From Nitrososphaerota archaeon (GTDB taxonomy: Archaea > Thermoproteota > Nitrososphaeria_A > Caldarchaeales > Calditenuaceae), in contig JAVQSZ010000002.1 of assembly GCA_033581555.1 (NCBI GenBank), positions 32,001-96,000 of the forward strand: a stretch of 64,000 nt of DNA, in the 5' to 3' direction. Within the stretch, counting starts at the first letter, position 1; each line of letters opens with the position of its first letter. This document shows positions 18,027-60,778 of this stretch, one piece after another. The position numbers were made by a program, and so were the translations under genes. Under the pieces are notes generated by a model. It worked only from the letters and a program-made list of their open reading frames with translations. It did not search any database and was not told where the DNA came from.

Positions 18027-19119
18027 GGTCAGGATAGAGGGGTACACCGACGTCTGGGTCTACTGCGAGCACGAGGACGGCCGTCTCACCAGGGCGACGA
18101 CCGAGGTCATAGCCGGTGCCAAGAAGATCGCCGAGAGGGTCGGGATGAAGGTCGTCGGCGTCCTGATGGGCTACAACCTCGGCGACCTCGTGAACGAGCC
18201 GATCTACTACGGGGCCGATAAGGTGATCTACTGCGACGACCCCCGCCTCAAGGACTACCAGGTCCTGCCGTACACGACCGTCCTCTCCGACATGGTCCTG
18301 AAGCTGAAGCCGTGGGCGCTGCTCTTCGTGACCAGCGAGATCGGGAAGGACCTCGGACCGAGGGTCGCCTATAGGACGAGGACGGGTCTCGCCGCGGACG
18401 TGATCGACCTGATAGTGGAGGACTTCATCATGAACCTGCCCACGGGCCGGTACGTCTACAAGAACTGCATAGCTCAGGTGAGGCCCGACTTCGCGACGAG
18501 GATCGCGAAGATCTTCACGCCGAAGCACAGGCCCCAGATCAGCAGCGTGAGGCCCGGGAACTTCACGCCGTTGCCGAGGGACGAGAGCAGGACCGGTGAG
18601 GTGATCAAGTGGGAGCCACGGTTCAACGAAGACGACTTCCAAGTGGAGGTCCTCGAGACGAGGCGCCTCCCGAAGAGCGAGGTGAAGCTCGAGGAGGCGA
18701 ACGTCGTCGTCAGCCTGGGGCTCGGGATATTGAGGGACGCCACGGGGAACCCAAGGGACCCGAGGGAAGCCTACAAGATGGCGGAGGAGCTGAAGAGGCT
18801 GATACAGGAGAAGTTGAGGCTGAAGGCGGAGATCGGCTCGAGCAGGGCCCTGATCTACGCCCAGCTCAAGGAGCTCGAGGGCCTGATCACGAAGGAGAGG
18901 CAGGTCGGCCAGACGGGGAAGACCGTTGCTCCTGACGTATACATCGCCCTAGGGATAAGCGGAGCCCTCCAGCACAGGGTCGGGATGCAGAGGGCGAAGA
19001 AGATCATCGCGGTTAACACGGACCCGAACGCTCCCATCTTCCAGATCGCGCACTACTGCGTCGTCGGGGACCTCTACGAGTTCCTCCCGAGGCTGATCGA
19101 GGAGCTGAGGTCGATCTGA
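18001..19119 (+). CDS. fixB: Electron transfer flavoprotein alpha subunit (FixB)
   Basis: RQVGQTGKTV, GISGALQH and AVNTDPNAPIF motifs. Confidence 0.92.
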   Translation: MSSQLQSIEVRIEGYTDVWVYCEHEDGRLTRATTEVIAGAKKIAERVGMKVVGVLMGYNLGDLVNEPIYYGADKVIYCDDPRLKDYQVLPYTTVLSDMVLKLKPWALLFVTSEIGKDLGPRVAYRTRTGLAADVIDLIVEDFIMNLPTGRYVYKNCIAQVRPDFATRIAKIFTPKHRPQISSVRPGNFTPLPRDESRTGEVIKWEPRFNEDDFQVEVLETRRLPKSEVKLEEANVVVSLGLGILRDATGNPRDPREAYKMAEELKRLIQEKLRLKAEIGSSRALIYAQLKELEGLITKERQVGQTGKTVAPDVYIALGISGALQHRVGMQRAKKIIAVNTDPNAPIFQIAHYCVVGDLYEFLPRLIEELRSI

Positions 19120-19120
19120 G

Positions 19121-20821
19121 TTGGGCTACGACTTCGACGTCATAGTTGTCGGAGCGGGGCCCGCCGGATGCGCGGCCGCGATGAAGCTGGTCCAGAACGG
19201 CGTCGACGTCGCCCTTCTGGAGCGCGGCCCCCTCGCGGGGAGCAAGAACGTCTCGGGCGGGGTCCTGTACCTGGACTACATCCCGGGCTACACGGTGATC
19301 GACGTCTTCCCCGACTTCGTCGAGAGGGGGCCGGTCGAGAGGCGGATCGTCTCGCACGAGGTCCTCTTCGTCACCGAGGCCACTCGCTCCAACGGCACCG
19401 CGTCGTACAAGGTCAGGAGGGTCGACGAGCGCTCTTTCCTGACAAGGCTCGGGGTCACGGGATTCAACTACACCGGCGAGAGGGCCTACTCGGTCCTCAG
19501 GGCGAGAATGGACCGGTGGATGGCGAACAGAGTCCAAGAGGCTGGGGGAGTGTTGAACACCTGCACCACCGTGGAGCACCTCCTCTTCGAGGACGGAAGG
19601 GTGGTCGGGGTTCGGACCAGCGACGAGGAGCTGAGGTCGAAGCTGGTGATCGATGCGAGCGGCGTCACGTCGAACCTCGTGGTCGAGGCGGGACTGAGGC
19701 CGAAGCTCGAGCCGTACCAGGTCTATCACGGCGTCAAACACGTCTTCAAGCTGAAGCCCGAGCTCATCGAGGAGAGGTTCGGGGTCGGGCAGGGCGAGGG
19801 CAAGGCGATCTACTTCGTCGGGCCCTTCATGAGGGGCGTGAGCGGAGGCGCCTTCCTCTACACGAACAAGGACACCCTCAGCGTCGGGATCGTCGTCTCA
19901 CTGGACTCGTACCTGAGGCGCGCGGCCGAGGACCCGGTCAACGTCGGGAAGCCGATGGACATGCTGGAGGAGTTCGAGGCACACCCTGCGGTCTCCAGGT
20001 ACCTCGAGGGCGCAGAGCTCGTCGAGTATTCGGCACACAACATACCGAAGGGCCACAAGACGTTCCTCGAGAAGCCCTACAGGGCTGGGTTCCTGGTGAC
20101 CGGCGACGCGCTTGGAGCCTTCGTCAAGATCGGTGGCCTCATCGACGGCATGAGGAGGGCCATCGCTACCGGGATAATGGCGGCCGAGGTCGCGCTGAGG
20201 TGCATCGCGGCCGACAAGTTCGACGAGGACGCGCTCTCTCACTACAGGGAGCTCCTAAGACCGATCCACAGGGACATCAGGAGGTCCGCCACCAACTCCG
20301 CGATAAGCGAGGGCCGGATCGGGTACGGTTTGGGCCCGAGGCTGCTGCTCGCGACCGGAGGGGAGCGGGTGATCTCGGCGTCGAGCAACGCTCCGCATTC
20401 GGGGTCGAGGGACGTCATCAAGAGGGTCCAAGAGCTCACGGGCATGCTCCAGTACGACGAGGACCACCACTACAGCCACATCAAGGTCGACATCGACGCC
20501 GCGTCCGCCTTCGCCCTGAAGCAGTGGGTGCCGGCGTGCCCGGTCAACTGCTACACGCTCCTGCTCGACAAGGGCGTCTTCGCGTCCTACAGAGACCTCT
20601 ACCTCTTCAACCTCAACAGGGCGATGTCCGAGGGGCTCTCCGAGGAGGCCGCGAGGGCCAGGGCGCTCAAGGAGACCCTCGAGGACGTGGCGAGGGCGAG
20701 GCTTAGGTTCGACTATGTGGCGTGCGTCGCGTGCGGGACTTGCGGCGTGATAGGCCCGAAGGGCGTCGTGGACTTCGGACACGAGAGGCGTGGCCACGGG
20801 GTCATCTTCAGGTACGGCTGA
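19121..20821 (+). CDS. fixC: FixC-like FAD oxidoreductase fused to a FixX-like ferredoxin
   Basis: GAGPAG, GSKNVSGG and GGAFLYTNKD motifs; C-terminal ACPVNCY and CVACGTC...GVIFRYG. Confidence 0.88.
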   Translation: MGYDFDVIVVGAGPAGCAAAMKLVQNGVDVALLERGPLAGSKNVSGGVLYLDYIPGYTVIDVFPDFVERGPVERRIVSHEVLFVTEATRSNGTASYKVRRVDERSFLTRLGVTGFNYTGERAYSVLRARMDRWMANRVQEAGGVLNTCTTVEHLLFEDGRVVGVRTSDEELRSKLVIDASGVTSNLVVEAGLRPKLEPYQVYHGVKHVFKLKPELIEERFGVGQGEGKAIYFVGPFMRGVSGGAFLYTNKDTLSVGIVVSLDSYLRRAAEDPVNVGKPMDMLEEFEAHPAVSRYLEGAELVEYSAHNIPKGHKTFLEKPYRAGFLVTGDALGAFVKIGGLIDGMRRAIATGIMAAEVALRCIAADKFDEDALSHYRELLRPIHRDIRRSATNSAISEGRIGYGLGPRLLLATGGERVISASSNAPHSGSRDVIKRVQELTGMLQYDEDHHYSHIKVDIDAASAFALKQWVPACPVNCYTLLLDKGVFASYRDLYLFNLNRAMSEGLSEEAARARALKETLEDVARARLRFDYVACVACGTCGVIGPKGVVDFGHERRGHGVIFRYG

Positions 20822-33315: not shown

Positions 33316-34368
33316 ATGAGCCTTCCGAGCTACGTGGGCTCCATGAAGGGCAGGTCGTTCCTGAACACGAACGACTTCACGAGGGAGGAGATCGAGGAGG
33401 TCCTGAAGGCCGCGAGGGACCTGAGGGAGAAGTTCAGGTCACGGGTCCCTACGCCCTACCTCCCGGGGAGGACGCTCTTCATGCTCTTCTACAACAGGAG
33501 CCTAAGGACCAGGAACTCCTTCGAGGCCGGCATATTCCAGCTCGGGGGCCACGCGCACTTCCTCAGCCCTCAGGACGTCTACACCCCGACCCTCCCTGAG
33601 GATATGGTCCCGTATCAGACCGAGTCGATCGCGGACGTCGCGAGGGTCCTGAGCAGGTACGGCGACGCGATCGCGATCAGGATCTACGGGGACGCCGCGA
33701 AGTGGCACATAGGTAGGGGCCACAGGGTCGTGAGGGAGTTCGCAAAGTGGAGCTCGATCCCGGTGTTGAACATGGAGGACGACCTCTACCACCCGTTTCA
33801 GGCGCTCGCGGACATCATGGCCATCACCGACGTCGCCCCTAACCCGAGCGGGAAGAAGTTCGTCGTCTCCTACGCCTATTCAGGTGGGCTGAAGCCGCTC
33901 GCCGTCCCGCAGAGCTGCGTCCTGATAGGGACGATGTTCGGGATGGACGTGGTCCTGGCTCACCCGAAGGGCTTCGAGCTGGAGGAGGGAGTGATCAAGG
34001 CTTGCGAGGAGAACGTTGACAGGTACGGCGGGAGCTTCGAGGTCGTCCACGACATGAAGGAGGCCTTCGAGGGCGCGGACTTCGTCTACCCGAAGGCCTG
34101 GTCGCCAAGAGGCTTCTTCCCGCCGTACAACGGCAAGGTCGACAAGGAGGGCGCGGTGGAGTACCAGAACAGGTTCAAGGACTGGATCTGCACCCAGGAG
34201 CTGATGGACCTGACGAGGAGGGGGAAGTACATGCACTGCGGCCCGGCGGACAGGGGGCAGGAGGTGACGGACGACGTGATCGACAACCCCGAGTACTCGC
34301 TTTACTTCGAGCAGGCCGAGAACAGGCTGCACGTGCAGAAGGCAGTGATGTGCATGGTGATGGGCTAG
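33316..34368 (+). CDS. YgeW-like carbamoyltransferase (second OTC-superfamily enzyme)
   Basis: [36 protein letters not shown] and HCGP motifs; lacks the OTC SMG loop. Confidence 0.8.
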
Positions 34369-35906
34369 CCCGCGCCCCTGGCCCCCAGCATCATCACTCC
34401 CACCTGCTCCAAGCTCGCCGAACCCCTCTCCAGTATTCCCACCATCTCGCCCTTGTACATCACGCCTATCCTGTCGCTCATCGCGAGGAGCTCCTCGAGG
34501 TCGTCGGAGAGGAGGACGATCGCGACGCCCTTCGACTTCAGGTCTAGGAGGAGCCTCCTGACGAAGTCGGTCGCCCCCACGTCGAGTCCTTTCGTCGGGT
34601 ACGCCGCGAGGACGAGCCGCGGCAGCTCTCCGGTCGGGCACGCGAAGAGCTCCCTCGCGATCACCAGCCTCTGGAGGTTGCCGCCGGAGAGGGTCTGGGC
34701 CTTCGCGGTCGCGGACCTAGTCACGATCGAGAGCTTCCCGATCAGCTCCTCGGACCTCCTCCTCATCAGCTTCCTGTTCAGTATCCCGGCCCTCGAGTAG
34801 GGAGGCCTCCTGTAGCACTTCAGCAAAAGGTTCTCGGCGACCTCCAAGCCCAGCCCTACGCCCTTCTGTGGCTCCGGGACGATCATCGAGACACCCTCGA
34901 GGACCAGGTCGTAGGTGTGCGCGTTAGTGACGTCCATCCCCATGAGGATTACCCTCCCCCTCGATACCTTCCTGAGCCCGTAGATCGCCTCGAGGAGCTC
35001 GTCCTGACCGTTCCCCGCCACCCCAGCTATCCCGAAGATCTCGCCCCTCCTGACGCTGAACGAGACCCCCTTCACTGCCAAGTGTCCCCTCTCGTCCCTC
35101 ACGTGGAGGTCCTCGACCACCAGGACCGGCTCTTGCGAGGGCGGAGGAGCGTGCGGGTAGGAGAGCCCCACCTCCCTCCCTATCATCAGGGAGACCAGCT
35201 CCTTCATGGAGACCTCGCTAGTCCTCCTGACCGCGACGACCCTCCCCTTCCTCATCACAGTCACCCTGTCGCTCACCCTCATCACCTCCTCCAGCTTGTG
35301 CGTCACCAACACGACCCCCATCCCGGAGTTGGCCATCGCCCTCACGCTCTCAAAGAACTGGGCGGTCTCCTGGGGCGTGAGGATCGACGTAGGCTCGTCG
35401 AGGATGAGGACCTTCGCCCTCCTCACGAGCATCTTGAGGATCTCGACCTGCTGCTTCTGGGAGGCGGTCAGCTGCCAGACGTAGTCGTCGGGGCTCACGT
35501 TCCAGCCGTACCTCGCGACCAGCTCCGAGAGCATCGACCTCAACTTGCCGTAGTCGAGCACGATCCCGGCCTCCTTCAGGCCCAGGACGACGTTCTCGAG
35601 GACCGAGTGCTTGGGGATCAGCTTGAACTGCTGGTGGACCATCCCGAGTCCGTGCCTTATCGCGTCCTTCGGCGACCTAATGTTGACCCTCCTGCCCTCT
35701 ATGAGGATCTCGCCCTCGTCCTTGCTGTAGAGCCCGTAGAGTATGTTCATCAGCGTCGTCTTCCCCGCTCCGTTCTCGCCCAGCAGCGCGTGGACCTCTC
35801 CCGCGTAGAGGGTGAAGTCGACCCCGTCGTTGGCCACGACCCCTCCCGGGAACCTCTTCGTTATCCCCCTCATCTCGACCAGGGGGATCAGCTGGGGATC
35901 CGTCAA
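34365..35906 (-). CDS. Nucleoside/sugar (CUT2, NupA/YufO-like) ABC transporter ATP-binding protein with two ABC domains
   Basis: [38 protein letters not shown] and PTKGLDVGA motifs. Confidence 0.9.
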
Positions 35907-35977
35907 CTCGTTATAGTGAATGCCGTTCAGCAATAAAAGAGTGATGGACGGTGCGCTGCGGTTTTGACGGCATGAGG

Positions 35978-36208
35978 TCAAACGACGACCGCGGTCTCCG
36001 TCCTCTCGACCCCCTCGACGGCGTGGACGCGCTCGACGATCAAGGACCCGAGGGCCTGCAGGTCGGACGCCTCGACGAAGGCGATAACGTCGTACCTCCC
36101 CGTGACGTTGCAGACAGCGAGGCATCCCTGGACCTTCGTGAGCTCCTGGGCGACCCTCTTCGCGTAGCCAGGCTTGGTCCTGATCAGTACGTACGCTTGA
36201 ACGGGCAT
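35978..36208 (-). CDS. Stand-alone Lrp/AsnC ligand-binding (RAM) domain protein
   Basis: AYVLI..KPG...[12 protein letters not shown]...GVERTET pattern. Confidence 0.88.
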
Positions 36209-36249
36209 CTCACCGCACCAACACCCCCGTCAGTATAAGTCTTCCGCGG

Positions 36250-37446
36250 TCAGTATGTCAGCCTCCCGAGAAGGGTCAGCTTGACGGCCTCACCGAACGT
36301 CGCGTGGGCGCCGGGCGGGACGACTAGGAACGCGTTCGCCCTGGACGCGGTGTAGAGGTTGTTGACGCCCTTAGGGAGCACCTTCGCCCTGACCCCCTCT
36401 CCGGATGGCTCAAGCGATGCGAAGTAGACGCTGCTGACGCCCGGTCTTCCGGGAGCGTCGCCGTCCAGACCGGCAGCGAGCTCGGGTGGAGGCGACCTGA
36501 GGCGGTAGAGGGACCTCAGGTAGGGCGCCCCGATCAGATGGAGGCCAGCGATCGCGGCTGTCAGGGAGCCGGGAAGGATTAGCCAGCTCCGCTCCCTCAC
36601 CATCACCAAGCCGACCGGCTTGCCGGGGTGGAGCCGCACGCCGTGGAAGAGGACCTCTGCGCCCTCCATCTCCGCGTAGGCTTTCCGGACGACGTCGTTG
36701 CTCCCGCTCGAGGCCCTCCCGACGGTGACGACCAGGTCGTTGGTCTCAGCGGCCCCCTTCACCCTGCCCACCAACCCGTCGACCTCGTCCCCGACCGCTT
36801 CGATCGAGGTAACATCGCAGCCCATCTGGCGGAGGTACGATGCGACGACGTGGGCGTAGTCGTTCGGGATGGCCCTCCCCGACTCGCTCAGGAGCTCACC
36901 GCCGACCGAGATCACGGCACACCTCGGCCTCCTGTACACGGAGACCCTCCTTACGCCCAGCTCCGAGAGGACGGCGACCTGCGGAGGCCTGAGGAGCTCG
37001 CCGCGCTCGACGACCCGATCGCCGGCCCTGAAGAATGAACCCCTCCTCTCGACGTTCTCCCACCTCTCGGCCATCCCCCTGAAAACCAGCTTCTGGCCCT
37101 CGAGCTTGACGTGCTCCGTCCTGATCACGACGTCCGATCCCGGCGGGATCGGCTGTCCGGTGAGGACGCTCACCGCCCACGGCCCATCCCCCGGAGACTC
37201 CGAGAGCTTGAGCCTCACCGCGCCCCCGCCGTCCCTCCGCTCGAGGAACTCGAACTTGGTCGCGAAGCCGTCGAGGGCCGCCCTGTCGACTCCGGGGACG
37301 TCGGAGCCCGAGAAGACCGGCTCTGCGACGACGCGACCTACCGCCTCCTCGATCGGCAGCTCGATCAGCTCCAGCGTCCTCCGGGACCCCGCGGAGACTG
37401 CAGCCCTCTGGGCCTCCTCGAGGGTCACCAGCTTCAGCGCACTCAC
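36250..37446 (-). CDS. moeA: Molybdopterin molybdotransferase
   Basis: AALDGFA, TGQPIPPG.D.VI..E, GGEL, HPGKP and LPG motifs. Confidence 0.88.
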   Translation of the reverse strand: MSALKLVTLEEAQRAAVSAGSRRTLELIELPIEEAVGRVVAEPVFSGSDVPGVDRAALDGFATKFEFLERRDGGGAVRLKLSESPGDGPWAVSVLTGQPIPPGSDVVIRTEHVKLEGQKLVFRGMAERWENVERRGSFFRAGDRVVERGELLRPPQVAVLSELGVRRVSVYRRPRCAVISVGGELLSESGRAIPNDYAHVVASYLRQMGCDVTSIEAVGDEVDGLVGRVKGAAETNDLVVTVGRASSGSNDVVRKAYAEMEGAEVLFHGVRLHPGKPVGLVMVRERSWLILPGSLTAAIAGLHLIGAPYLRSLYRLRSPPPELAAGLDGDAPGRPGVSSVYFASLEPSGEGVRAKVLPKGVNNLYTASRANAFLVVPPGAHATFGEAVKLTLLGRLTY

Positions 37447-37453
37447 CGAGACC

Positions 37454-37948
37454 TCACCCGGTGGGCCCGCGGACCACCCGCAGGACCTCCGAGAGGAGCT
37501 CGTCGAACTGATCCGGCAGGAGGTACCTCGCCGATGGGTTGGGCGCAAAGGAGACCGGGATGTCGTTCGGTCCCACGTCCTCCCCCTCCTCTCTGAGCAC
37601 CCTGATCCTGACGACGCCCTCGGAATCCTGAGGCATCATCGACTGGAAGCCCTCGACGACGAGGAAGTCCACGTCGCCCGCGAGCGCCCTCAAGTCCCCG
37701 ACCCCCCTAATCGCGACGGACCTGTGGATCACCGCGGTCTCCCTCGGGGAGGAGACGATCACCGGGTCGGCACCGGACTGGTAAAGCCTCCAGCTGTCGG
37801 ACCCCTCCCTTTCGATCGTGAAGTCGGCGTGGTGGACGTGCTTCGCCGCCGCGACCCTGTACCCCATCGACCTGAGCGCCGAGACGATCATCGAGGCGAG
37901 CCTCGTCTTACCTGCCTTCTTGAACCCGAAGACCGCTATGACCCACAC
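37454..37948 (-). CDS. mobB: Molybdopterin-guanine dinucleotide biosynthesis protein B
   Basis: GFKKAGKT, KHVHH, GSDSWR and DFLVVEGF motifs; start uncertain. Confidence 0.88.
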   Translation of the reverse strand: MWVIAVFGFKKAGKTRLASMIVSALRSMGYRVAAAKHVHHADFTIEREGSDSWRLYQSGADPVIVSSPRETAVIHRSVAIRGVGDLRALAGDVDFLVVEGFQSMMPQDSEGVVRIRVLREEGEDVGPNDIPVSFAPNPSARYLLPDQFDELLSEVLRVVRGPTG

Positions 37949-38034
37949 CGGCTCCTCAACGCCCCGGACCGTGAAAAGCTTAACCCGATCCCTCCCGGTT
38001 TTCATCTTATTACTCACGGCGAGGTATTCGAAGT

Positions 38035-39042
38035 GTGGGCTCGATACCCCGTCTCGGGCTCTATCTTCAGGACATGCACGTCAGGGAAATGATGAGGTAC
38101 GCGCAGATCGCTGAGGAGCAAGGTTTCGAGTCGGTTTGGATCGCCGAGTCCAGGCTCTCGAGAGACGCGATAGTCCCGATGACCGCCATCGCCGCCGTGA
38201 CAGAGAGGATCAAAGTTGGAGCGGGCGTGATCAACACCTGGACAAGGAACGCCGCGTTGATCGCTCAGACATTCGCGACCCTCGACGAGCTCGCCGACGA
38301 CAGGATCCTGCTGGGCCTCGGGGCTTGGTGGGACCCGCTCGCGTGGAAGGTCGGGATCGAGAGGAGGGAGCCCCTTAAGTGCATGAGGGAGTACGTCGAG
38401 ACGATCAGGAGGCTCCTCAGGATGGAGGAGGTGACCCATGAGGGCGAGTTCGTCAAGCTGAGGGGCGTGAGGCTGGACGTCCTGCACGGCAAGGGTCCGG
38501 TCCCGAGGAACGTCCCGATCTACATCGGCGCCACCGGGTTCAAGATGATGGAGCTATCGGGCGAGATAGCGGACGGCGTCCTCCTCAACTACTTGGTCTC
38601 GCCTCTTTACAACGACAAGGCCATCGAGCACATCAAGGTCGGGGCCGCGAGGGCCAAGAGGAGGCTGGAGGACATCGACAGGCCCCAGCTGATAGCCTGC
38701 TCGGTCCACGAGGACGGCGACTACGCCGTCAAGCTCGCGAAGAAGCACGTAACGATGACCCTCGGCCAGCAGCCCCACATCATGAAGGCGAGCGGCGTGA
38801 GAGAGGACCTAATCGAGGAGGTTCAGAGGGCGATGGGCGGATGGCCCGCGAAGCCTGGCGGGATCGAGAGGGCGATGGAGATCGTCCCGGACGACGTCGT
38901 GAGGCTCATTACGGCATCGGGCACGCCGTCCGAGGTGAAGAGGAAGATCGAAGAGTACATGGCCCACGGCTGCACCGCGCCCCTCATCCTCCCGCTGAGC
39001 GGCGACGTCGAGTACGCGATTAGGGCCCTCGCAGCCCTCTGA
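38035..39042 (+). CDS. LLM-class (Mer-like, probably F420-dependent) oxidoreductase
   Basis: [18 protein letters not shown]...R, RILLGLG and [20 protein letters not shown] motifs. Confidence 0.88.
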
Positions 39043-39051
39043 GGTGGGACG

Positions 39052-40422
39052 ATGAAGTCCGAGAGGAAGCTGGTCAGGGGCGGAGTGTTAGTCACGATGG
39101 ACGACGAGCTCGGCGTGATCAGGGACGGAGCCGTCCTGGTCGAGGGCGAGAGGATAGCCGCGGTCGGGAAGGCCGACGAGTTGACGAGGACGGAGAAGGT
39201 CGACGAGGTCGTCGACGCGAGGGGGAGCTTCGTGCTTCCGGGGCTGATCTGCGGCCACACCCATCTGTACGGGATCGCGCTGAGGGGATCCGGCCTGAAG
39301 GTCGAGCCGCCGACTGACTTCCTCCAGATCCTCCAGAGGGTCTGGTGGCCGCTGGACGAGAGGCTGGACAACGAGGCGGCTTACGCGACGGCCCTGGCCG
39401 CGTCCATGGAGATGGCCCTCACCGGGACCACCTGCTTCGCCGACACGTACTCCGCGCCCAACGGAATCGAGGGGTCCCTCGACGCGATCGCAAGGGCGGT
39501 CGACGAGGTCGGGATCAGGGGCCTGATCTCCTTCGAGGCGACGGAGAGGCGGAGCGGCGATGAGGGCCTTAGGGGGCTGAAGGAGAACGAGCGGTTCCTC
39601 TCGAGCTCATCCTCGCGGAGGGCGATGGGGATGGTGAGCGTCCACGCGTCCTTCACGGTCACCGACGAGCTGATCGAGAGGGCCGTAGAACTCTCGAGGC
39701 GGTTCGACTGCCCGATCACGGTCCACGTCTCCGAGGGGCCGAACGACGTCTACCACAACATCGAGAGGTACGGCATCAGGACCGTCGAGAGGCTCGAGGG
39801 GCTGGGGTTGCTCTCGCCGAGGGCTGTCCTGGCCCACTGCGTCCACCTCTCACCGAAGGAGATATCGATCCTCGCGAGGACGGGGGCGAACGTCGCCCAC
39901 AACCCGATGAGCAACATGCTGAACGCCGTGGGCGTCTCCCCGGTCCCGGAGATGCTCAGGGAGGGCGTGAACGTCTGCCTCGGGAACGACGGCTACGTCT
40001 TCGACGCCTTCGAGAACGCGAGGGCCGCGTTCCTGGTCCACAGGGTCCACAGGAGGGACCCGACCGCGCTCTCCGCGAAGGTGGTGCTAGAGATGGCGAC
40101 CGTCAGGGCTGCTGGGGCTTACGGCCTGAAGGACCTAGGGTCCCTGAGGCCCGGGAAGCTCGCGGACCTGATCGTCGTGAGGCCGACCGTAATGGCTACG
40201 CCCCTCACCGGAGACCCGTACTCCTACGTCGTCAACGGGCTGAGGGGATCGGACGTAAGGCTCGTGATGGTCGGCGGCGAGGTCGTCGCTAGAGACGGGA
40301 GGCTCACGAGGCTCGACCAGAGGGAGGCGGAGGAGAGGGTCCTCAGGTCGATCGAGAGGCTCTGGGAGAAGTTGGGCGAGGGGCCGCTCAGGGCCGTCGA
40401 GCCTCTGCGCGGAGGTGCGTGA
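39052..40422 (+). CDS. SsnA-like metal-dependent amidohydrolase
   Basis: PGLICGHTHLY, DFLQILQRVWWPLDERL (SsnA-like), HASFT, HVSEG, HNPMSNM.N and LGNDG motifs. Confidence 0.85.
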   Translation: MKSERKLVRGGVLVTMDDELGVIRDGAVLVEGERIAAVGKADELTRTEKVDEVVDARGSFVLPGLICGHTHLYGIALRGSGLKVEPPTDFLQILQRVWWPLDERLDNEAAYATALAASMEMALTGTTCFADTYSAPNGIEGSLDAIARAVDEVGIRGLISFEATERRSGDEGLRGLKENERFLSSSSSRRAMGMVSVHASFTVTDELIERAVELSRRFDCPITVHVSEGPNDVYHNIERYGIRTVERLEGLGLLSPRAVLAHCVHLSPKEISILARTGANVAHNPMSNMLNAVGVSPVPEMLREGVNVCLGNDGYVFDAFENARAAFLVHRVHRRDPTALSAKVVLEMATVRAAGAYGLKDLGSLRPGKLADLIVVRPTVMATPLTGDPYSYVVNGLRGSDVRLVMVGGEVVARDGRLTRLDQREAEERVLRSIERLWEKLGEGPLRAVEPLRGGA

Positions 40423-41684
40423 GCGTGTCCTTCGTCAGGGAGCTGGTCTGCTCGAGGTGCGGAAGGAGCTACCTGCCGACCGAGAGGCCGGTCCTCTGCG
40501 CCTCCAGGGACCTCGGGAGGCTCGACGTGGTCTACGACTACGAGGAGCTGAAGGAGTTCCTGACCAGGGAGGCGGTCTCGAGGAGGCCTTGGGCCGGAGG
40601 GGTCTGGAGGTACTGGGAACTGCTCCCTGCCGCGATGGAGTTCGGCGCGCCCTTCGACGAGGGCCTGACACCGCTGTTCTGCGCCAGGAGGCTCAACGAC
40701 CACCTCGGCCTGAGGAGGATGAGGCTGAAGGACGAGACCCGGAACCCCACGAGCTCCTTCAAGGACAGGGCGATGGCCGTGGGAGCCGCGAAGGCCGCCG
40801 AGTGGGGTGCGGAGACGGTTGTGACCGCATCGAGCGGGAACGCTGCCTCAGCGCTAGCCGCATACGCAGCGAGCCTGGGCCTGAAGTGCGTCGCGTTCGT
40901 CCCCGAGAACGTCTCGCTCGGGAAGGCGGCGCAGCTGATCTCCTACGGCGCGAGGCTCTTCAGGGTCAAGTCGGTCGAGGAGGGGAGGGACCCGACGGTC
41001 CAGGCGATGCTGAGAGCGGTCGAGGAGTTCGGGTGGTACCCCTGTCCGAGCTTCGGCCCCTTCAACCCGTACCAGGTCGAGGGCCCCAAGACCATCGTCT
41101 ACGAGGTCGCGGAGCAGTTGGGCTGGAGGTTCCCGGACGCGTTCATCGTCCCGACTGGCTCGGGGTGCCTTCTCGCGGGGATCTGGAAGGGCGTGAGGGA
41201 TCTGGTCGAGCTGGGGCTCGTTGAGGGCGAGATGCCGAGGTTGATAGCGGTCCAGCCGGAGGGGAACCAGCCCCTGGTGAGGGCTGTCAGGAAGGGACTC
41301 TCCTTCAGCGATGTCGTGCCCGAGAGGTCGCCCAAGTCGATCGCCTCCGGGTTGCTGGACCCGTACCCCTGGGACGGCGACGCGGCGATGGAGGGGATAA
41401 GGAGGACCGGTGGGACAGGGGTCGCGGTCACCGACGAGGAGATCCTCGAGGCGGTCAAGCTCCTAGCCAGCAAAGCAGGCGTCTTCGCGGAGCCCTCGGG
41501 CGCGGTCGGAGTCGCGGCCGCGGTGAGGCTGCAGGACGAGGGCCACCTCGACGGGTCGGACGAGGTAGTAGTGCTGGTCACGGGTTCGGGGCTGAAGGAG
41601 GTCGAGAAGCTGGTCCCGACGGTCGGTGAGATACCGCTGATAACGCCTGACGTCGAGCAGTTGAGGCGCTACCTGGGGACCTGA
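40419..41684 (+). CDS. Threonine synthase-family PLP enzyme
   Basis: N-terminal CxxC; EGLTPL, NPTSSFKDR, ASSGNA, EPSGA and TGSGLK motifs; coupled to the SsnA-like gene. Confidence 0.85.
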   Translation: MSVSFVRELVCSRCGRSYLPTERPVLCASRDLGRLDVVYDYEELKEFLTREAVSRRPWAGGVWRYWELLPAAMEFGAPFDEGLTPLFCARRLNDHLGLRRMRLKDETRNPTSSFKDRAMAVGAAKAAEWGAETVVTASSGNAASALAAYAASLGLKCVAFVPENVSLGKAAQLISYGARLFRVKSVEEGRDPTVQAMLRAVEEFGWYPCPSFGPFNPYQVEGPKTIVYEVAEQLGWRFPDAFIVPTGSGCLLAGIWKGVRDLVELGLVEGEMPRLIAVQPEGNQPLVRAVRKGLSFSDVVPERSPKSIASGLLDPYPWDGDAAMEGIRRTGGTGVAVTDEEILEAVKLLASKAGVFAEPSGAVGVAAAVRLQDEGHLDGSDEVVVLVTGSGLKEVEKLVPTVGEIPLITPDVEQLRRYLGT

Positions 41685-43069
41685 GCCCTCGTCGCCCTAT
41701 GGACGTACCGCCCCCTCCCGGGCCTCGAGGTGACCTCTCCGTCCTCAGCGACCACTTCGCCCCTCGAGATCGTCAGCACGGGGTACCCCGTGACCTCAAC
41801 CCCCTCGTAGATCGAGAAGTCGAGCCTGCTGTGGAGGACGTCCTTCCCGAGCCTCACCCTCCTCTCCGGATCGATCAGAACGATGTCCGCGTCCGCTCCC
41901 ACCGCGATCCTCCCCTTTCTCGGGTAGAGGCCGTAGACCCTCGCGGGGACGTAGGAGGTCAGGCGGACGAAGCGTTCGAGGCTGATCCTGCCCTTCCTCA
42001 CTCCCTCCGAGAAGAGCGTCGGAACGATCGTCTCAGTCCCCTGGACGCCGCCCGGGATCTCCCTGAAGTCCCTCGACTTGAGCTTGTGGGCAGAGGCATA
42101 GGGCGCGTGGTCGCTCCCCACCACGTCGATCTGCCCCGAGGCGAGCCCGGACCAGAGGGCCTGGGCGTCCTCCCGCGTCCTCAGGGGCGGCGCCATGACG
42201 AAGAGCCCACCGTCGGGCCTCGAGTAGACCTCCTTCGTGAGGAGGAGGTAGTGGGGACAGGTCTCAACCCACATCCTCGCCCCGATCCCCCTCGCGGCCT
42301 CCGCGGCCCTCAACCCCGCTCCCGAGGAGAGGTGGACGACCAGGACCTCTGCCCCGGTCACCGACGAGAGGTAGCCGAGCCTCAGGACCGCCTCCGCCTC
42401 CGAGACCGCCGGCCTGCTCTCCTCGTACCTCGAGACGTCCGCACCCGCCTCCTCCACGACCCTCTCGGTCTCCTTCAGGACAATCCACTCGTTCTCGCAG
42501 TGGCAGAGGACCAGCACCCCGGCCCTCGAGGCCCAGCTCAGCGCCCTGAGGAGGGACCCGTCGTCGATCATCAGCCCCCTCCTGCTGTAGGCCGTGAAGA
42601 CCTTGACCGAGGAGACGCCCCTCCCGCCCACGAGCTCGTTCAGCTCAGCCTCTACCCTCGGACCCCACTCGAGGACGCAGACGTGGAGCCCGAAGTCGAT
42701 CCTCGACTTCGCTGACGCGGCCGCCAGCCTCTCCTCGAAGGCCCCGACGATCGATCCTCCCCTCTCGGGCGTGACGAAGTCGATGAAGGTCGTGACGCCA
42801 CCACACGAGGCCGCTGAGCTGCCCGAGTCGAAGTCATCAGCGGTCGCCATCCCACCGCCGTACTGCATCTCGAAGTGGACGTGCCCGTCTATCGCACCAG
42901 GGACGACCACTTTCCCGGAGGCGTCGATCACCCTTTCGGCCCGTGCCTCGATCGACTTCGCGATGACCGCTATCTTCCCGCCCTCGACCCCAATCTCGCA
43001 CTCGAAGGTCCCGAACGGGTCAGCCACCCTGCAGTTCCTCAGGACCAGGTCAAACCCCAACTCCCGCAC
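41669..43069 (-). CDS. hydA: Dihydropyrimidinase/D-hydantoinase
   Basis: PGAIDGHVH, GGVTTFIDF, SVKVF.AY, HCEN, ETCPHYL and SDHAPY motifs. Confidence 0.9.
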   Translation of the reverse strand: MRELGFDLVLRNCRVADPFGTFECEIGVEGGKIAVIAKSIEARAERVIDASGKVVVPGAIDGHVHFEMQYGGGMATADDFDSGSSAASCGGVTTFIDFVTPERGGSIVGAFEERLAAASAKSRIDFGLHVCVLEWGPRVEAELNELVGGRGVSSVKVFTAYSRRGLMIDDGSLLRALSWASRAGVLVLCHCENEWIVLKETERVVEEAGADVSRYEESRPAVSEAEAVLRLGYLSSVTGAEVLVVHLSSGAGLRAAEAARGIGARMWVETCPHYLLLTKEVYSRPDGGLFVMAPPLRTREDAQALWSGLASGQIDVVGSDHAPYASAHKLKSRDFREIPGGVQGTETIVPTLFSEGVRKGRISLERFVRLTSYVPARVYGLYPRKGRIAVGADADIVLIDPERRVRLGKDVLHSRLDFSIYEGVEVTGYPVLTISRGEVVAEDGEVTSRPGRGRYVHRATRAQVPR

Positions 43070-43079
43070 CGCCTTGAGC

Positions 43080-44864
43080 TCAGGCCGGGACGACGGCCGC
43101 GACCGGGTCGACGAACCTCTGCGCGTTGACGTCGAAGAGACCCTTGTCGGTAACGCGGGCCTCGGGGATGACCGAGAGCGTGAGGAGTGAGACGATCGGC
43201 ATGTACGGGTGGTCGATCGCACCGAGCCTCTCCAGCGCCCTTCTGAATCCCCTCATCTTCTCCGCCATGACCCGCACGGGCTCCTCGGACATCAGCCCCG
43301 CGATCGGGAGCTCTATCCTCGAGAGGACCTCGCCGTTCAGGGTCGCGACCAGTCCTCCCTCCGACTTGACGACCTCTGTCGCCGCGAGGTGCATGTCCCT
43401 CGGGTCGGTCCCTATCACTGCGAGGTTGTGGGAGTCGTGGGCGACCGTGGTCGCGATCGCGCCCCTCTCCATGAAGCCCTTCACGAACCCGTAGCCCCTC
43501 TTCCCAGTGCCCCTGTGCCTCTCCATTACCACCATCAGCGCGACGTCGCCCAGCAGGGCCCTACCTCCCCTGACTTCGACCTCGGCGGTAGACCTCTTCG
43601 TCACGATCATCTCCAGGAACGCCCTCGAGACGTCTTCCACGGACGGGTCGGGCCTCCTGAACTCGATCACGTTCAGGACCAGCTTGCCGTCGCTGATCGG
43701 CGGCCTGAACTCGAAGTCTTCAGGCCTCAGGTCCTTGACCCTGACGGTGCCCAGGGCTCTCTTGTCGAACCTCCTCTCCGGGAGCTCCGCGACGAGCCTT
43801 CCGTCCCTCGCGACGACCTTGCCCCCGAAGAGCACCATCCTCACGTCGATCCTCTTCAGGCTACCGAGGACTACTAGGTCGGCGAGCTTACCAGGCGAGA
43901 CCGCTCCCAGCTCGAACATCCTCATGTGGGTCGCGGGCCTCAGTGTCACGCTCCGGATCGCCTCGACCTCGTCCATGCCGGCCTCGATCATCGACCTGAC
44001 CACGAAGTCCAGGTGTCCCCTCTCCGCGAGCGTGTCGGGCATCACGTCGTCCGTCACAAGGATCACCCGGTTCCAGGGGCTCGGGAGAGAGCCGATCGAC
44101 CTCACGAACCTCCTTGGGTCCAGGATGTAGGGCCCCCTCAGCTTGACGTACATCCCCCTCCTGAGCTTCTCGACCGCCGACTCGACAGTGAAGTTCTCGT
44201 GGTCTGCCTCAGGGCCCGTCGCGACGTACGCGTTCAGCCTCGCGCCTGAGAGGAGTACGCAGTGCCCGTCGATCACGCACCTCCTCCTCCAGCCTATCTC
44301 GAGGATCCGCATGAACTTCTCACGGCCCGCGAGGACCGACTCGAAGTCCATCACCTCGCCCAGCCCCACAATCCCTTCCCAGTCGAGGGCCCTCTCGACG
44401 TCCTCCGGGGTGATCTCGGCCCCAGCCGTCACCGCATCGGACTCCGGGACGCAGGTCGGGACGAAGTAGGTGATCCTCATCGGTAATTCCCTAGAGTTCT
44501 CGAGCATCATCCTGACGCCCTCGATCCCGAGGACGTTCGCGATCTCGTGGGGGTCAGCGCAGACCGTCGTGGTGCCGTGCGGGAGGACGGCCTCCGCGAA
44601 CCTAACCGGGGTGACCATGCTGCTCTCGATGTGGAGGTGGGTGTCGATGAAGCCCGGCACCACCACGCCCTCTACGTCCAACACGCCCTCGGCGCTCGGA
44701 GCGTCCTTGCCCACGTAGACTACCCTGTCCCTGTATATCCCGACGTCGGCCCATTCTACCTCACCCGAGTAGACGTTGAGGACCTGGGCGCCCCTCAAAA
44801 GGAGCGTGAGTTTCCTTTTGCCCTGCGCAGCCTCGACGAGCTCCCTGATGTACTGCGCGTCCAT
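43080..44864 (-). CDS. ade: Adenine deaminase (Ade/AdeC family)
   Basis: DTHLHIESS, GTTT..DPHEIANV, GLGEVMD, TDD and VAHDSHN motifs. Confidence 0.92.
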   Translation of the reverse strand: MDAQYIRELVEAAQGKRKLTLLLRGAQVLNVYSGEVEWADVGIYRDRVVYVGKDAPSAEGVLDVEGVVVPGFIDTHLHIESSMVTPVRFAEAVLPHGTTTVCADPHEIANVLGIEGVRMMLENSRELPMRITYFVPTCVPESDAVTAGAEITPEDVERALDWEGIVGLGEVMDFESVLAGREKFMRILEIGWRRRCVIDGHCVLLSGARLNAYVATGPEADHENFTVESAVEKLRRGMYVKLRGPYILDPRRFVRSIGSLPSPWNRVILVTDDVMPDTLAERGHLDFVVRSMIEAGMDEVEAIRSVTLRPATHMRMFELGAVSPGKLADLVVLGSLKRIDVRMVLFGGKVVARDGRLVAELPERRFDKRALGTVRVKDLRPEDFEFRPPISDGKLVLNVIEFRRPDPSVEDVSRAFLEMIVTKRSTAEVEVRGGRALLGDVALMVVMERHRGTGKRGYGFVKGFMERGAIATTVAHDSHNLAVIGTDPRDMHLAATEVVKSEGGLVATLNGEVLSRIELPIAGLMSEEPVRVMAEKMRGFRRALERLGAIDHPYMPIVSLLTLSVIPEARVTDKGLFDVNAQRFVDPVAAVVPA

Positions 44865-44966
44865 ACCGATTGGGCGTCGCCGGTGTTAATTTAGGTGAGG
44901 GGCCATGACCCCGGGACCGCGGCCTGGACAAACCGATATCTCTCGGGGCTTGTGGGAAAGGGGAGC

Positions 44967-45593
44967 ATGGAGCAGGTCCAGGGGAGGCTGCCTCCAGGTC
45001 AGAGGTACGTCCGGGACTTCATCGTCTACGCGGCGCTGGGGATACCGAGGGTCGACCTGAACAGCTACAGGCTCTCGGTGACTGGTCTCGTCGAGAGGCC
45101 GCTCTCGTTCACCTACGAGGAGCTGCTCAGGATGCCGATGAAGAAGTACGTCAGGGACGCCCACTGCGTTACCAAGTGGTCGGTGAAGGACGTCGAGTGG
45201 GAGGGAGTTCAGATCAGGTACCTCGCCGAGCTCGCCGGCGTCAAGCCCGAGGCCAGGTGGGTGATGTTCAGGTGCCTAGACGGCTACTCGGCCCCCGTGC
45301 CGGTAGAGGACGCGCTGGACGAGTACTCTATCGTCGCTTTAAGGATCAACGGGAGGCCCATACCCCTCGAGAACGGGTTCCCCGCGAGGCCCTTCATCCC
45401 CCACCTCTACCTCTGGAAGAGCGCGAAGTGGTTGAACGAGATCGAGTTCATCGAGGAGTATGAGGACGGGTTCTGGGAGAGGCCAGAGAACGGCGGCTAC
45501 CATGAGCGGGGGAACGTCTGGCAGGAGGAGAGGTTCAAGGACGCGGGCGGGTTCCACTCGAGGAGGAGGCCGATCAGGCCGAAGGGTTTCTGA
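44967..45593 (+). CDS. Sulfite oxidase-like molybdopterin-binding oxidoreductase (cytoplasmic)
   Basis: [27 protein letters not shown] and GFWE..GYH motifs. Confidence 0.9.
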
Positions 45594-57538: not shown

Positions 57539-59044
57539 GTGAACTCCCAGTGGCCTTCACTTTCCAAGGAGCAAATCTTCGCGAGGCTGAGGGAATACGC
57601 CTCAGAGGACGCGGAGCCGTCGAGCGGGAGGCTCTTCACGATCGCCTTCGAGTCCGGCCTCGACGACCTGAAGGAAATCGCCCTCGAGGCCTTCAGGGCC
57701 TTCATGGACAAGAACATGCTCGACTTCACGGAGTTCCCCAGCGTGATCAGGATGGAGAGAGATGTGGTCGGGATCGCGACAAGGTTGATGAACGGCGACG
57801 AGCAGGTCGCGGGGACCTACACCTTCGGCGGTACCGAGAGCGTCTTCCTCGCGGTGAAGGCCGCGCGCGACTGGTTCATCCTCGGGAGAGGAACGATCAC
57901 GATCCCCGAGTTAGTGATCCCCGTCACCGCGCACCCGTGCTTCGACAAGGCCGCCGAGTACATGGGCCTAAAGGTCAAACGAGTGAAGGTGGACCCGGAG
58001 ACGCTTCAGGCTGATGTCGAGGCCGTGAAGGAGGCGATCACGGAGAACACCGCGATGGTCGCAGCTTCTGCTCCGAACTGGCTCTTTGGGACTGTCGACC
58101 CAGTTAAGGAGATGGCCGAGGTCGCGCAGGACGGTCGCATCTGGTTCCACGTCGACGCTTGTGTCGGCGGCTTCGCGCTCCCGTTCATGAGGAAGCTGGG
58201 CGAGGACGTCCCGGACTTCGACTTCAGCGTCGAGGGGGTCACCTCGATATCGCTGGACCCGCATAAGTACGCATACGCGCCCATAGGAGCATCGGTGGTC
58301 CTCTTCAGGAAGGAGTACTACAAGATGTATTCCCAGTTCGCCTGCCTGAGGTGGCCGGGTTACCCGATCGTGAACCCCGCCGTGCTCTCGTCGAGGTCCG
58401 CGGGACACCTGGCCTCCACGTGGGCAGTCCTCCACTACTTGGGCGAAGAGGGTTACCTGCGGCTCACCAGGTCGATAATCGAGGCGAGAGACCTGATCTC
58501 CCGCGGCGTGGAGAAGCTGGGTTACAGGGTTATGGGGAGGCCGACGGTCATACTCGCCTTCACCTCGGAAGACCTCAACCTCTTCAGGCTCTCCGACGAG
58601 ATGACGAAGAGGGGCTGGTACCTCTTGCCTCAGAGGGGCGTCCCTGAGATGGGGATACCCCCAAGCGTCCACCTCACGATCACTCCGCTCAACAGGAGAA
58701 CCTGCGATGAGATGGTGAGGGACCTGGAGGAGTGCACCGATCTCGTGAGGAGGCTCCCGCCCAGCGAAGCAGAGGGACTGATCGAGGGACTAGGTCTGAT
58801 CATGCGGCTGATCACGCCCCAGGAGTTCGACCTGGCCTCATTGGGGGCTCTGATGAGGGAGCTTGAAAGGAGCCTAGAGGTCTACGGCCCCGCGCTCCTC
58901 AAGGCCCTTGGCCTGAAGGAGGGCCTCCCCAAGGAGATGTCGACTATATATCAGCTCTTCAACAACCTGCCGCCGAGTGTCACGGAGCTCCTCGTGAACT
59001 ACGTTGTCATACAGCTCTTCCGGGGAGCCGGACGACCCGTGTGA
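57539..59044 (+). CDS. PLP-dependent group II decarboxylase / sphingosine-1-phosphate lyase-like protein
   Basis: GGTES, HPCFDKAA, HVDAC.GG and SLDPHKY motifs. Confidence 0.85.
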   Translation: MNSQWPSLSKEQIFARLREYASEDAEPSSGRLFTIAFESGLDDLKEIALEAFRAFMDKNMLDFTEFPSVIRMERDVVGIATRLMNGDEQVAGTYTFGGTESVFLAVKAARDWFILGRGTITIPELVIPVTAHPCFDKAAEYMGLKVKRVKVDPETLQADVEAVKEAITENTAMVAASAPNWLFGTVDPVKEMAEVAQDGRIWFHVDACVGGFALPFMRKLGEDVPDFDFSVEGVTSISLDPHKYAYAPIGASVVLFRKEYYKMYSQFACLRWPGYPIVNPAVLSSRSAGHLASTWAVLHYLGEEGYLRLTRSIIEARDLISRGVEKLGYRVMGRPTVILAFTSEDLNLFRLSDEMTKRGWYLLPQRGVPEMGIPPSVHLTITPLNRRTCDEMVRDLEECTDLVRRLPPSEAEGLIEGLGLIMRLITPQEFDLASLGALMRELERSLEVYGPALLKALGLKEGLPKEMSTIYQLFNNLPPSVTELLVNYVVIQLFRGAGRPV

Positions 59045-59073
59045 ACTCCGCACCTGTAGTGCGTATCTGACCG

Positions 59074-60693: not shown

Positions 60694-60778
60694 GCCTTTG
60701 CGACGGTGAACCTAAATTTTAAGCCTTTCCTTTATTGCTCATTAGGTCGGTCATAGATTTATTAACCACGAGGGGGTA

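Follow-up and report, generated by a model that had tools for sequence, protein, structure and literature searches.

A conserved gene cluster of Caldarchaeales resembling the bacterial reductive purine route, with a luciferase-like oxidoreductase beside a sister of SsnA

The reductive breakdown of urate was elucidated as late as 2025, in gut bacteria alone. E. coli and Clostridium reduce urate to 2,8-dioxopurine with XdhD or XdhAC (Li et al. 2025, PMC12507026; Liu et al. 2025, 10.1101/2025.04.24.650524), YgfK is active only when SsnA is present and SsnA pulls the reaction (Li et al. 2025, Life Metab, PMC12507026), HyuA opens hydantoin to 2,3-diureidopropionate and YgeX makes pyruvate (PMC12507026; 10.1101/2025.04.24.650524). 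Two ureido groups are removed by YgeW with phosphate (with YqeA then giving ATP) and by YgeY, the two reports differing on which enzyme removes which. For Chloroflexota, Li et al. (2025, PMC12507026) describe a putative F420-dependent luciferase-like monooxygenase (LLM) replacing YgfK next to SsnA, and the replacement of YgfK by an F420-LLM is thus already in print for that group. Their survey covers bacterial members of IPR017700 only, and “archae” occurs 0 times in either report. Here we describe an LLM gene, an SsnA-like amidohydrolase gene and their conserved neighbours at positions 33316-45593 of a 64,000-nucleotide stretch of archaeal DNA (the window), which together resemble the bacterial purine cluster.

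The window is G000:C2:32001-96000, where G000 is its genome (GCA_033581555.1), C2 the contig JAVQSZ010000002.1, and C5, C7, C8 and C12 are further contigs of G000; numbers with L are locus labels. The organism belongs to the Calditenuis/Calditenuaceae group of the Caldarchaeales (“Aigarchaeota”), and its genome (1.43 Mb in 72 contigs, 90.6% complete, ∼65% G+C) encodes a reverse gyrase. Eight public DNA runs from five studies contain the window stretch, all of them labelled hot springs metagenome and four of them possibly the source of this DNA, and no RNA run containing it was found among the public runs listed. Judged by its genes and their relatives, the cluster probably encodes a catabolic route for purines, reductive and of the 2,8-dioxopurine type, in which the LLM would act as reductase; the exact substrate may be 2,8-dioxopurine or another oxopurine. 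The original prediction, that this is an archaeal counterpart of the ygeW/ssnA/hyuA purine route, is thereby supported by gene context, phyletic pattern and phylogeny.

The E. coli genes run ygeW-ygeX-ygeY-hyuA-yqeA ... ygfK-ssnA-ygfM-xdhD, and in the archaeon as in E. coli the reductase gene lies directly upstream of an SsnA-type amidohydrolase gene. Both also have a HyuA-type hydantoinase (36% identical), a carbamoyltransferase with a carbamate kinase (46.6% identical to YqeA), an enzyme of the xanthine dehydrogenase (XDH) family and a fold-type II pyridoxal phosphate (PLP) enzyme at the end of the route. Unlike E. coli, the archaeon has no YgfK, YgeX or YgeY orthologue; its reductase is a Mer-like LLM, its PLP enzyme is ThrC-like, its amidohydrolase falls in a sister clade of SsnA, two carbamoyltransferases resembling N-acetylornithine carbamoyltransferase (AOTCase) and ornithine carbamoyltransferase (OTC) take the place of YgeW, its XDH has three separate subunits without the XdhD insertion, and in G000 the genes lie on several contigs. 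The Chloroflexota variant, as described by Li et al., likewise pairs an LLM (PF00296) with an SsnA-type amidohydrolase and has F420 as proposed reductant. It differs in that the archaeal proteins score under the TIGR03314 and NF005540 cut-offs and may fall outside IPR017700.

Two further systems bear comparison. According to Li et al. (2025), Clostridioides difficile uses a PydA-type reductase, UacX, and a hydrolase, UacY, so that there, too, the reductase and the ureido-cleaving enzyme appear swappable; Hadarchaeota members of the window clade are similarly followed by a DHO_dh + 4Fe-4S (PydA/UacX-type) gene, whereas the window has an LLM and putatively phosphorolytic carbamoyltransferases and not UacX and UacY. 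In the hydantoinase/carbamoylase and Pyd pathways a TIGR02033 cyclic amidohydrolase opens a reduced ring to an N-carbamoyl acid, and a hydantoin racemase accompanies the downstream module in two genomes of the genus labelled g4. The archaeon differs from them in having no evident PydA partner and no linked carbamoylase or beta-ureidopropionase, the ureido groups being probably removed by phosphorolysis. No archaeal version of the reductive purine route was found in the literature searched (supplements not covered), nor, within the same limits, were the SsnA-sister clade, two AOTCase-like carbamoyltransferases without YgeY, or a ThrC-derived enzyme.

A conserved core of eight genes

Synteny was read around the SsnA-like orthologues of 14 related genomes (6 more from the genus, 7 from a different family and 1 from a third family), onto which the window proteins were mapped. 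Eight genes form a conserved core: those for a carbamoyltransferase (CTaseA), a Bmp-type ABC ATPase, a stand-alone Lrp ligand domain, the LLM, the SsnA-like amidohydrolase, a ThrC-like PLP enzyme, a hydantoinase and an adenine deaminase (Ade). The core is together in all six of the other genus genomes and largely so in the seven of a different family and the one of a third, with proteins 50-95% identical and differing flanking genes; since the core is kept across families while its flanks change, the arrangement is more than chance, and the conservation that had been proposed as a check on the original prediction is borne out. Within the genus, Ade, hydantoinase, ThrC-like and SsnA-like genes stand together in 6/6 genomes, the LLM, Lrp domain, ABC ATPase and CTaseA genes are present too wherever the contig continues, and the position of the Lrp domain between LLM and ATPase is kept in G001, G002, G003 and G005.

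Reading frames were chosen by third-position G+C and then scanned with Pfam and NCBIfam profiles against curated cut-offs; scores written “x vs y” are hidden Markov model (HMM) bits against the curated NCBIfam cut-off. All eleven genes named in the original prediction are present where it placed them:

33316-34368, + strand: CTaseA, carbamoyltransferase of 350 aa, AOTCase/OTC-like (Pfam OTCace_N and OTCace)
34365 to ∼35906, - strand: tandem ABC ATPase of a Bmp/PnrA-type (CUT2) importer (two ABC_tran domains)
35978-36208, - strand: stand-alone Lrp/AsnC ligand domain, 76 aa (Pfam AsnC_trans_reg, 55 bits)
36250-37548, - strand: MoeA, molybdopterin molybdotransferase (Pfam MoeA_N and MoCF_biosynth)
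37454-38017, - strand: MobB (TIGR00176 mobB, 87 vs 76)
38035-39042, + strand: LLM oxidoreductase, Mer-like (Pfam Bac_luciferase, 229 bits)
39052-40422, + strand: SsnA-sister amidohydrolase, 456 aa (best NCBIfam models SsnA)
40419-41684, + strand: ThrC-family PLP enzyme, 421 aa (Pfam PALP, 261 bits)
41669 to ∼43069 (start approximate), - strand: D-hydantoinase/dihydropyrimidinase, HyuA-type (TIGR02033)
43080-44864, - strand: adenine deaminase (Ade), 594 aa (Pfam Adenine_deam_C, 175 bits)
44895-45593, + strand: small sulfite-oxidase-fold molybdoenzyme, 232 aa (Pfam Oxidored_molyb, 142 bits)

The genes fall into five transcription units: CTaseA on the plus strand, convergent with the ABC ATPase; MobB-MoeA-Lrp domain-ABC ATPase (minus); LLM-SsnA-like-ThrC-like (plus), with a 9-nt gap after the LLM gene and a 4-nt overlap between the other two; Ade upstream of the hydantoinase on the minus strand; and the Oxidored_molyb gene (plus). 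The ATPase start is approximate, since the longest open frame, to 36125, overlaps the Lrp gene, and TTG 35906 or ATG 35873 fits the HMM start. The stand-alone Lrp domain is possibly a regulator subunit. Separate from the CTaseA gene, a canonical OTC (383 vs 306) is encoded at window 1158-2147.

Three of the eleven genes, which the original prediction had listed with the others, behave differently. Of the five genomes in which the junction is seen, G000 and G002 alone have MoeA and MobB genes within the cluster, and the cluster of G001, G003 and G005 is without them. The Oxidored_molyb gene, whose product scores far under the cut-off with every NCBIfam match, adjoins Ade only in G000, G002, G004 and G006, four of the seven genus genomes, and a phosphonate-type transporter beside it is likewise confined to these four. 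Patchiness of this kind within a single genus indicates that MoeA, MobB and the molybdenum cofactor oxidoreductase are lineage-specific neighbours and not members of the core.

A wider view came from an alignment scan with the SsnA-like protein, one genome per species, which gave 194 relatives in 217 matched stretches, of which the best 80 were kept (L033-L112). Thirty of these, with at least 59% identity, are all from Nitrososphaeria (Caldarchaeales and metagenome-assembled genomes (MAGs) titled Nitrososphaerales), and in 26 of the 30 the LLM gene lies directly upstream of the SsnA-like gene, the contig breaking there in 3 more. The thirty loci contain the following:

XDH subunit: 20/30
carbamoyltransferase: 19/30
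hydantoinase (at least 42% identity): 17/30
Ade-like gene: 17/30
carbamate kinase: 15/30
ThrC-like gene: 14/30
Bmp: 12/30
Oxidored_molyb gene: 3/30
MoeA and MobB: 1/30
YgfK-, YgeX- or YgeY-like gene: 0/30

A YgeX-like gene was found in none of the best 80 loci. The other 50 (49-56% identity), from Bathyarchaeia, Hadarchaeota, Conexivisphaerales, Asgard and a few others, have a divergent cyclic amidohydrolase as partner in 36/50 and an LLM in 1/50. Across the order, counted in 41 Caldarchaeales genomes, CTaseA and the ThrC-like gene share one and the same set of 19, and LLM orthologues (at least 79% identity) occur in 16, all of which also have the SsnA-like gene.

In Caldarchaeum and Pelearchaeum, which belong to another family, the orthologues of the LLM (79%) and of the SsnA-like protein (63-66%) are again encoded side by side. 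In the Caldarchaeum-type locus L017 this pair is contiguous with genes for XDH FAD, 2Fe-2S and molybdopterin subunits (Pfam), a second carbamoyltransferase (CTaseB), a carbamate kinase (arcC 437 vs 358), the ThrC-like enzyme, a V4R protein, a CysK-like enzyme, CTaseA (82%), an Ade-like protein and a complete Bmp/PnrA-type ABC transporter. The parts that the window lacks lie elsewhere in G000. XdhM, XdhS and XdhL genes are followed directly by a carbamate kinase gene, contiguous at C7:86668-91292 (the kinase at C7:90345-91292, TIGR00746 413 vs 358), and CTaseB (80%) is at C7:59046-60059; thus xdh and carbamate kinase, which the original prediction noted as missing from the window, are both in its own genome and side by side. 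A Bmp protein (74%) and two permeases (56% and 64%) are encoded at C8:58006-61404 with no ATPase beside them, which explains the orphan ATPase in the window, itself 51% identical to the Bmp-transporter ATPase of the Caldarchaeum cluster.

Several features of these outlying loci deserve mention in their own right. The carbamate kinase frame (L028:10316-11302; G000:C7:90315-91301) is open from before the XdhL stop and has no ATG, GTG or TTG before its conserved N-terminal motif, the first canonical start lying ∼60 codons in; a CTG stands 8 nt past the XdhL stop. Translation may begin at a non-canonical codon or be coupled to XdhL, or the assembly may be wrong here. A second XDH (pucD model 625 vs 784) is encoded at L031 (G000:C5:94392-99348) beside an amidohydrolase resembling DadD and 8-oxoguanine deaminase, and in L039 (Benthortus) and L043 the orthologues of both are part of the LLM-SsnA-like cluster. 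At G000:C8:2499-9743 a second complete ABC transporter of the Bmp type, whose ATPase shares 44% identity with that of the Caldarchaeum cluster, is encoded next to a third XDH-family large subunit.

The genes might instead be unrelated housekeeping neighbours, comprising a threonine synthase, a carbamoyltransferase of the arginine pathway, a dihydropyrimidinase acting on pyrimidines, a C1 enzyme similar to Mer and a deaminase similar to MtaD. The ThrC-like protein does pass two threonine synthase cut-offs, the carbamoyltransferase is nearest AOTCase and OTC, and in public records the orthologues are labelled “amidohydrolase”, “MTA/SAH deaminase” and “methylene-H4MPT reductase”. We nevertheless regard this explanation as very improbable, because the genome has its canonical OTC (383 vs 306) and two better ThrC paralogues, because the set stays together across families while the flanks vary and merges with XDH and carbamate kinase genes in relatives, and because CTaseA and the ThrC-like gene share an identical patchy spread and the LLM, SsnA-like and ThrC-like genes are so closely packed.

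The putative reductase and its amidohydrolase partner

The fifteen NCBIfam models that match the LLM best are all of the F420 class, with Mer first (199 vs 276). The nearest Protein Data Bank (PDB) entry is again a Mer, 8qq8 (162 bits), and 8 of 11 PDB matches are F420 enzymes. G000 has F420 genes over cut-off for CofD (288 vs 257), CofE (298 vs 181) and Fno (161 vs 150), so that use of F420 by the LLM is plausible. CofE is over cut-off in 38/41 Caldarchaeales genomes, and it seems that F420 is completed in this order although no FO synthase can be recognised. By position and family we propose that the LLM is an F420H2-dependent dearomatising oxopurine reductase in the role of YgfK, of which no orthologue was found in G000 by tblastn in a genome 90.6% complete.

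For the SsnA-like protein the two best NCBIfam models are both SsnA (NF005540, 350 vs 444; TIGR03314, 325 vs 455.5). Its HxH, HxxE, H and D motifs, which we take to be the metal and catalytic motifs of the amidohydrolase fold, align with those of E. coli SsnA and are invariant in 19 homologues. When E. coli K-12 proteins, from the annotated record, were searched against G000 by tblastn (E ≤ 1e-5), SsnA found the window gene best (30%, 162 bits), followed at a distance by the C5 paralogue (88 bits). In a 43-row tree the window protein falls in a 26-row archaeal clade that is sister (100/98) to a group of E. coli SsnA, on a long branch, and four Hadarchaeota proteins, with GuaD and the DadD/MtaD-like paralogue outside. 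The phylogeny that the original prediction had called for therefore places the protein away from GuaD and from the MtaD/DadD-like paralogue, in the sister clade of true SsnA. We propose, from this relationship, that it hydrolytically opens the six-membered ring of a reduced purine.

The four Hadarchaeota proteins of the tree are true SsnA (556 vs 444; 517 on the second model) and adjoin a gene for a YgfK-like protein of 1098 aa. In the Hadarchaeota locus L074 a member of the window clade is also encoded, with a PydA/UacX-type reductase gene (DHO_dh + 4Fe-4S) directly downstream, so that here, too, the window clade stands beside a dearomatising reductase, of another kind. The locus as a whole (L074:8291-17116, from a Hadarchaeota MAG) carries the two reductase-amidohydrolase pairs side by side, together with a divergent cyclic amidohydrolase and XdhC.

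Such arrangements would also suit a route with the same enzyme logic and another substrate, whether a directly reduced oxopurine (xanthine, 6,8-dioxopurine or 8-oxopurines), a non-purine N-heterocycle or imported hydantoin, and with another end product: the window clade is sister to true SsnA and not part of it, and in Hadarchaeota the two occur with different reductases. We consider this rather unlikely, as the recurrent neighbours in the thirty loci, XDH (20), Ade-like (17) and Bmp (12), point to purines, as do the clusters of L039 and L043, which also take in a second XDH and a deaminase-like amidohydrolase.

Carbamoyltransferases, PLP enzyme, hydantoinase and xanthine dehydrogenase

CTaseA was called YgeW-like in the original prediction, a label that must be replaced: it scores 146 vs 500 and 149 vs 453 on the YgeW models TIGR03316 and NF005538 (CTaseB 142 and 147), whereas its best NCBIfam model is N-acetylornithine carbamoyltransferase NF003384 (277 vs 288, not passed; CTaseB 224 vs 288), and the nearest PDB entries are AOTCase 3kzc (211 bits) and Pyrococcus OTC (201), ahead of YgeW 3q98 (135). 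Orthologues of CTaseA are 62-95% identical to it; CTaseB, on C7, is 38% identical. E. coli YgeW nonetheless finds CTaseA and CTaseB as its best matches in G000 (32% and 31%), and E. coli YqeA finds the C7 carbamate kinase. A grouping with AOTCase, which the original prediction had itself named as an outcome that would count against it, is thus what CTaseA gives, and we hold it to be outweighed by the gene context, in which a phosphorolysis of ureido groups to carbamoyl phosphate is the role we propose for CTaseA.

The opposite direction, in which carbamoyl phosphate would go into the making of a heterocycle or ureido compound, for instance a secondary metabolite or a cofactor, deserves very little credence. 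Carbamoyltransferases and cyclic amidohydrolases are reversible in principle and the nearest relatives, AOTCase and OTC, are biosynthetic, but a carbamate kinase (catabolic, ATP-forming) directly after XDH, uptake transporters and Ade fit catabolism, and the annotated loci showed no genes for a biosynthetic scaffold.

The two g4 genomes, in which neither an LLM nor an SsnA-like orthologue occurs, yet keep CTaseA and the ThrC-like gene. Locus L118:6424-18726 of one of them (G009) encodes a nucleoside phosphorylase, carbamate kinase, CTaseA, a CysK-like and a ThrC-like enzyme, hydantoin racemase, a different cyclic amidohydrolase, an energy-coupling factor (ECF) transporter and CTaseB, without LLM, SsnA-like protein or XDH. 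As the reductase part is lacking, the pathway looks modular, with an upstream part for reduction and ring opening and a downstream part leading from hydantoin through carbamoyl phosphate to the PLP enzyme, and the g4 gene set fits a hydantoin-to-carbamoyl-phosphate module of this kind. That CTaseA, the ThrC-like gene and carbamate kinase are kept there with a hydantoin racemase and an ECF transporter also lends something to the idea of a different substrate. In G028 (genus g8) an SsnA-like gene is present without an LLM orthologue, and L119:4094-12339 of this genome carries three tungsten-type aldehyde:ferredoxin oxidoreductases, a ferredoxin and a PydA-type DHO_dh + 4Fe-4S gene between CTaseA and CTaseB/ThrC-like.

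The ThrC-like protein passes the threonine synthase cut-offs (NF006050 311 vs 303, TIGR00260 188 vs 167) and is the weakest of three G000 paralogues on TIGR00260, where the others score 285 and 299. Its PLP lysine motif is intact. In the motif N-S-x-N-P-x-R, presumably the substrate-phosphate site of threonine synthases, it has G-P-F-N-P-Y-Q instead (within CPSFGPFNPYQ), as have all 17 cluster-linked orthologues, while the C12 paralogue and PDB 2zsj retain the canonical residues. We propose that it is a lyase for 2,3-diaminopropionate (or 3-ureidoalanine) in the role of YgeX, whose best G000 match is an IlvA-like gene (only 24.6%, 57 bits). Replacement of YgfK by the LLM and of YgeX by the ThrC-like enzyme, as originally predicted, is in this way supported comparatively. 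A CysK-like gene, which passes cysK (363 vs 351) and in Caldarchaeum and g4 separates CTaseA from the ThrC-like gene, was considered for the PLP step and kept only as a second candidate; in G000 it is elsewhere, adjoining Rieske/cytochrome b genes. Neither PLP enzyme is a YgeX relative, which again leaves some room for a different substrate. For E. coli YgeY the best match in G000 is a LysK/ArgE-type deacetylase (301 vs 288), and the YgeY models give 78-96 vs 321. A possible stand-in for YgeY, a CN-hydrolase encoded 2.3 kb upstream of the XDH operon, was dropped, as it had 0 matches in the best 80 loci.

The hydantoinase (TIGR02033 445 vs 393) is the only match of E. coli HyuA in G000 (279 bits), and we propose that it opens the hydantoin ring; no PydA-type partner is evident for it, the genome having a single DHO_dh gene. 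Ade passes Adenine_deam_C (175 vs 27) and not TIGR01178 (438 vs 472.5). Uricase was not found in G000. Li et al. (2025, PMC12507026) highlight the active-site Glu606 of XdhD. The insertion that carries this residue is specific to XdhD, since neither E. coli XdhA nor any of the 22 archaeal XdhL proteins aligned has it, and as a marker of regiochemistry the residue was set aside as uninformative for this reason. An XDH without the insertion would be in keeping with another substrate as well; on the other hand, according to Liu et al. (2025, 10.1101/2025.04.24.650524), C. sporogenes XdhAC carries out urate 6-dehydroxylation, so the absence of E606 does not exclude the activity.

Elsewhere in the window, 15550-20821 carries a DUF763 gene followed on one strand by two electron transfer flavoprotein (ETF) subunits and an ETF:quinone oxidoreductase-like flavoprotein. 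The stretch 58000-64000 has a G+C content of 0.55-0.58, against ∼0.65 elsewhere, and is possibly a foreign island, with a PLP decarboxylase-like gene (57539-59044) and an HpaB-family hydroxylase gene (60779-62245).

The proposed route and what it would mean

In the route that we propose, a Bmp-type ABC importer, with its ATPase in the window and its binding protein and permeases on C8, would take up purines or nucleosides, adenine deaminase would give hypoxanthine, and XDH-family molybdoenzymes (one on C7 beside carbamate kinase, a second on C5) would set the purine oxidation pattern. The Mer-like LLM, probably with F420H2 regenerated by Fno, would then reduce and dearomatise the oxopurine, and the translationally adjacent SsnA-sister amidohydrolase would open the six-membered ring, pulling the reduction forward. 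The HyuA-type hydantoinase would open the remaining hydantoin ring to 2,3-diureidopropionate, CTaseA and CTaseB would cleave the ureido groups with phosphate, carbamate kinase turning carbamoyl phosphate into ATP, and the ThrC-like PLP enzyme would form pyruvate and ammonia from the diamino (or ureido-amino) acid that is left.

A number of observations weigh against a reductive purine route of this kind. The LLM is under the cut-off of every F420-LLM model; CofG and CofH, which make up FO synthase, were not found in G000, and CofH is over cut-off in 0/41 Caldarchaeales genomes, including one in a single contig that is listed as 99% complete. The “possibly F420-linked” of the original prediction is plausible, by the family resemblance of the LLM and with CofD, CofE and Fno present. 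With E. coli SsnA the SsnA-like protein shares only 30% identity (over 427 aa), and it is under both SsnA cut-offs; since both SsnA clades coexist in one Hadarchaeota locus their substrates may differ. The carbamoyltransferase is not of the YgeW family, and the linked XDH is without the E606 insertion, so that urate 6-dehydroxylation is not indicated by that marker. The pathway genes are spread over at least four contigs in G000, and the Caldarchaeum hydantoinase homologue (47-53%) is unlinked in 5/5 genomes. Finally, the thirty loci are kin, and several are the same genomes as those of the synteny set, so their counts overstate independence.

A bolder reading, which we put forward tentatively and hold to be possible more than probable, is that thermophilic and soil Nitrososphaeria run a distinct, possibly oxygen-tolerant reductive purine pathway that has four features jointly. 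The F420H2-dependent Mer-like LLM would be a new kind of oxopurine reductase without the Fe-S cluster and FAD domain of YgfK. Two AOTCase-like phosphorolytic carbamoyltransferases would remove both ureido groups of 2,3-diureidopropionate; together with carbamate kinase they would yield as many as two ATP per purine, where E. coli gains one. A threonine synthase paralogue that has lost its phosphate site would be a new diaminopropionate (or ureidoalanine) lyase. The SsnA-sister clade, lastly, would be an old archaeal family, spread over Bathyarchaeia, Hadarchaeota, Asgard and Nitrososphaeria, which has repeatedly swapped its partner reductase among LLM, PydA-type and TrxR-like enzymes.

On a practical level, the published MAG screen used BLAST identity cut-offs against C. 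sporogenes proteins (10.1101/2025.04.24.650524), and the archaeal cluster would probably fail it, judging by identities to E. coli proteins (SsnA ∼30%, YgeW 32%, and no orthologue of YgfK, YgeX or YgeY) as a proxy for the C. sporogenes ones. If the reductive purine route is correct, three new activities would await description, namely an F420-type oxopurine reductase, AOTCase-type ureido-acid phosphorylases and a ThrC-derived lyase, and the enzymes would be thermostable, Fe-S-free candidates for engineering urate-degrading systems. For the organisms themselves, it would mean purine catabolism with a substrate-level gain of ATP in Caldarchaeales of hot springs and, to judge from the loci found, in Nitrososphaerales MAGs from soil, and would bear on the hand-offs of nitrogen and carbon in those communities.

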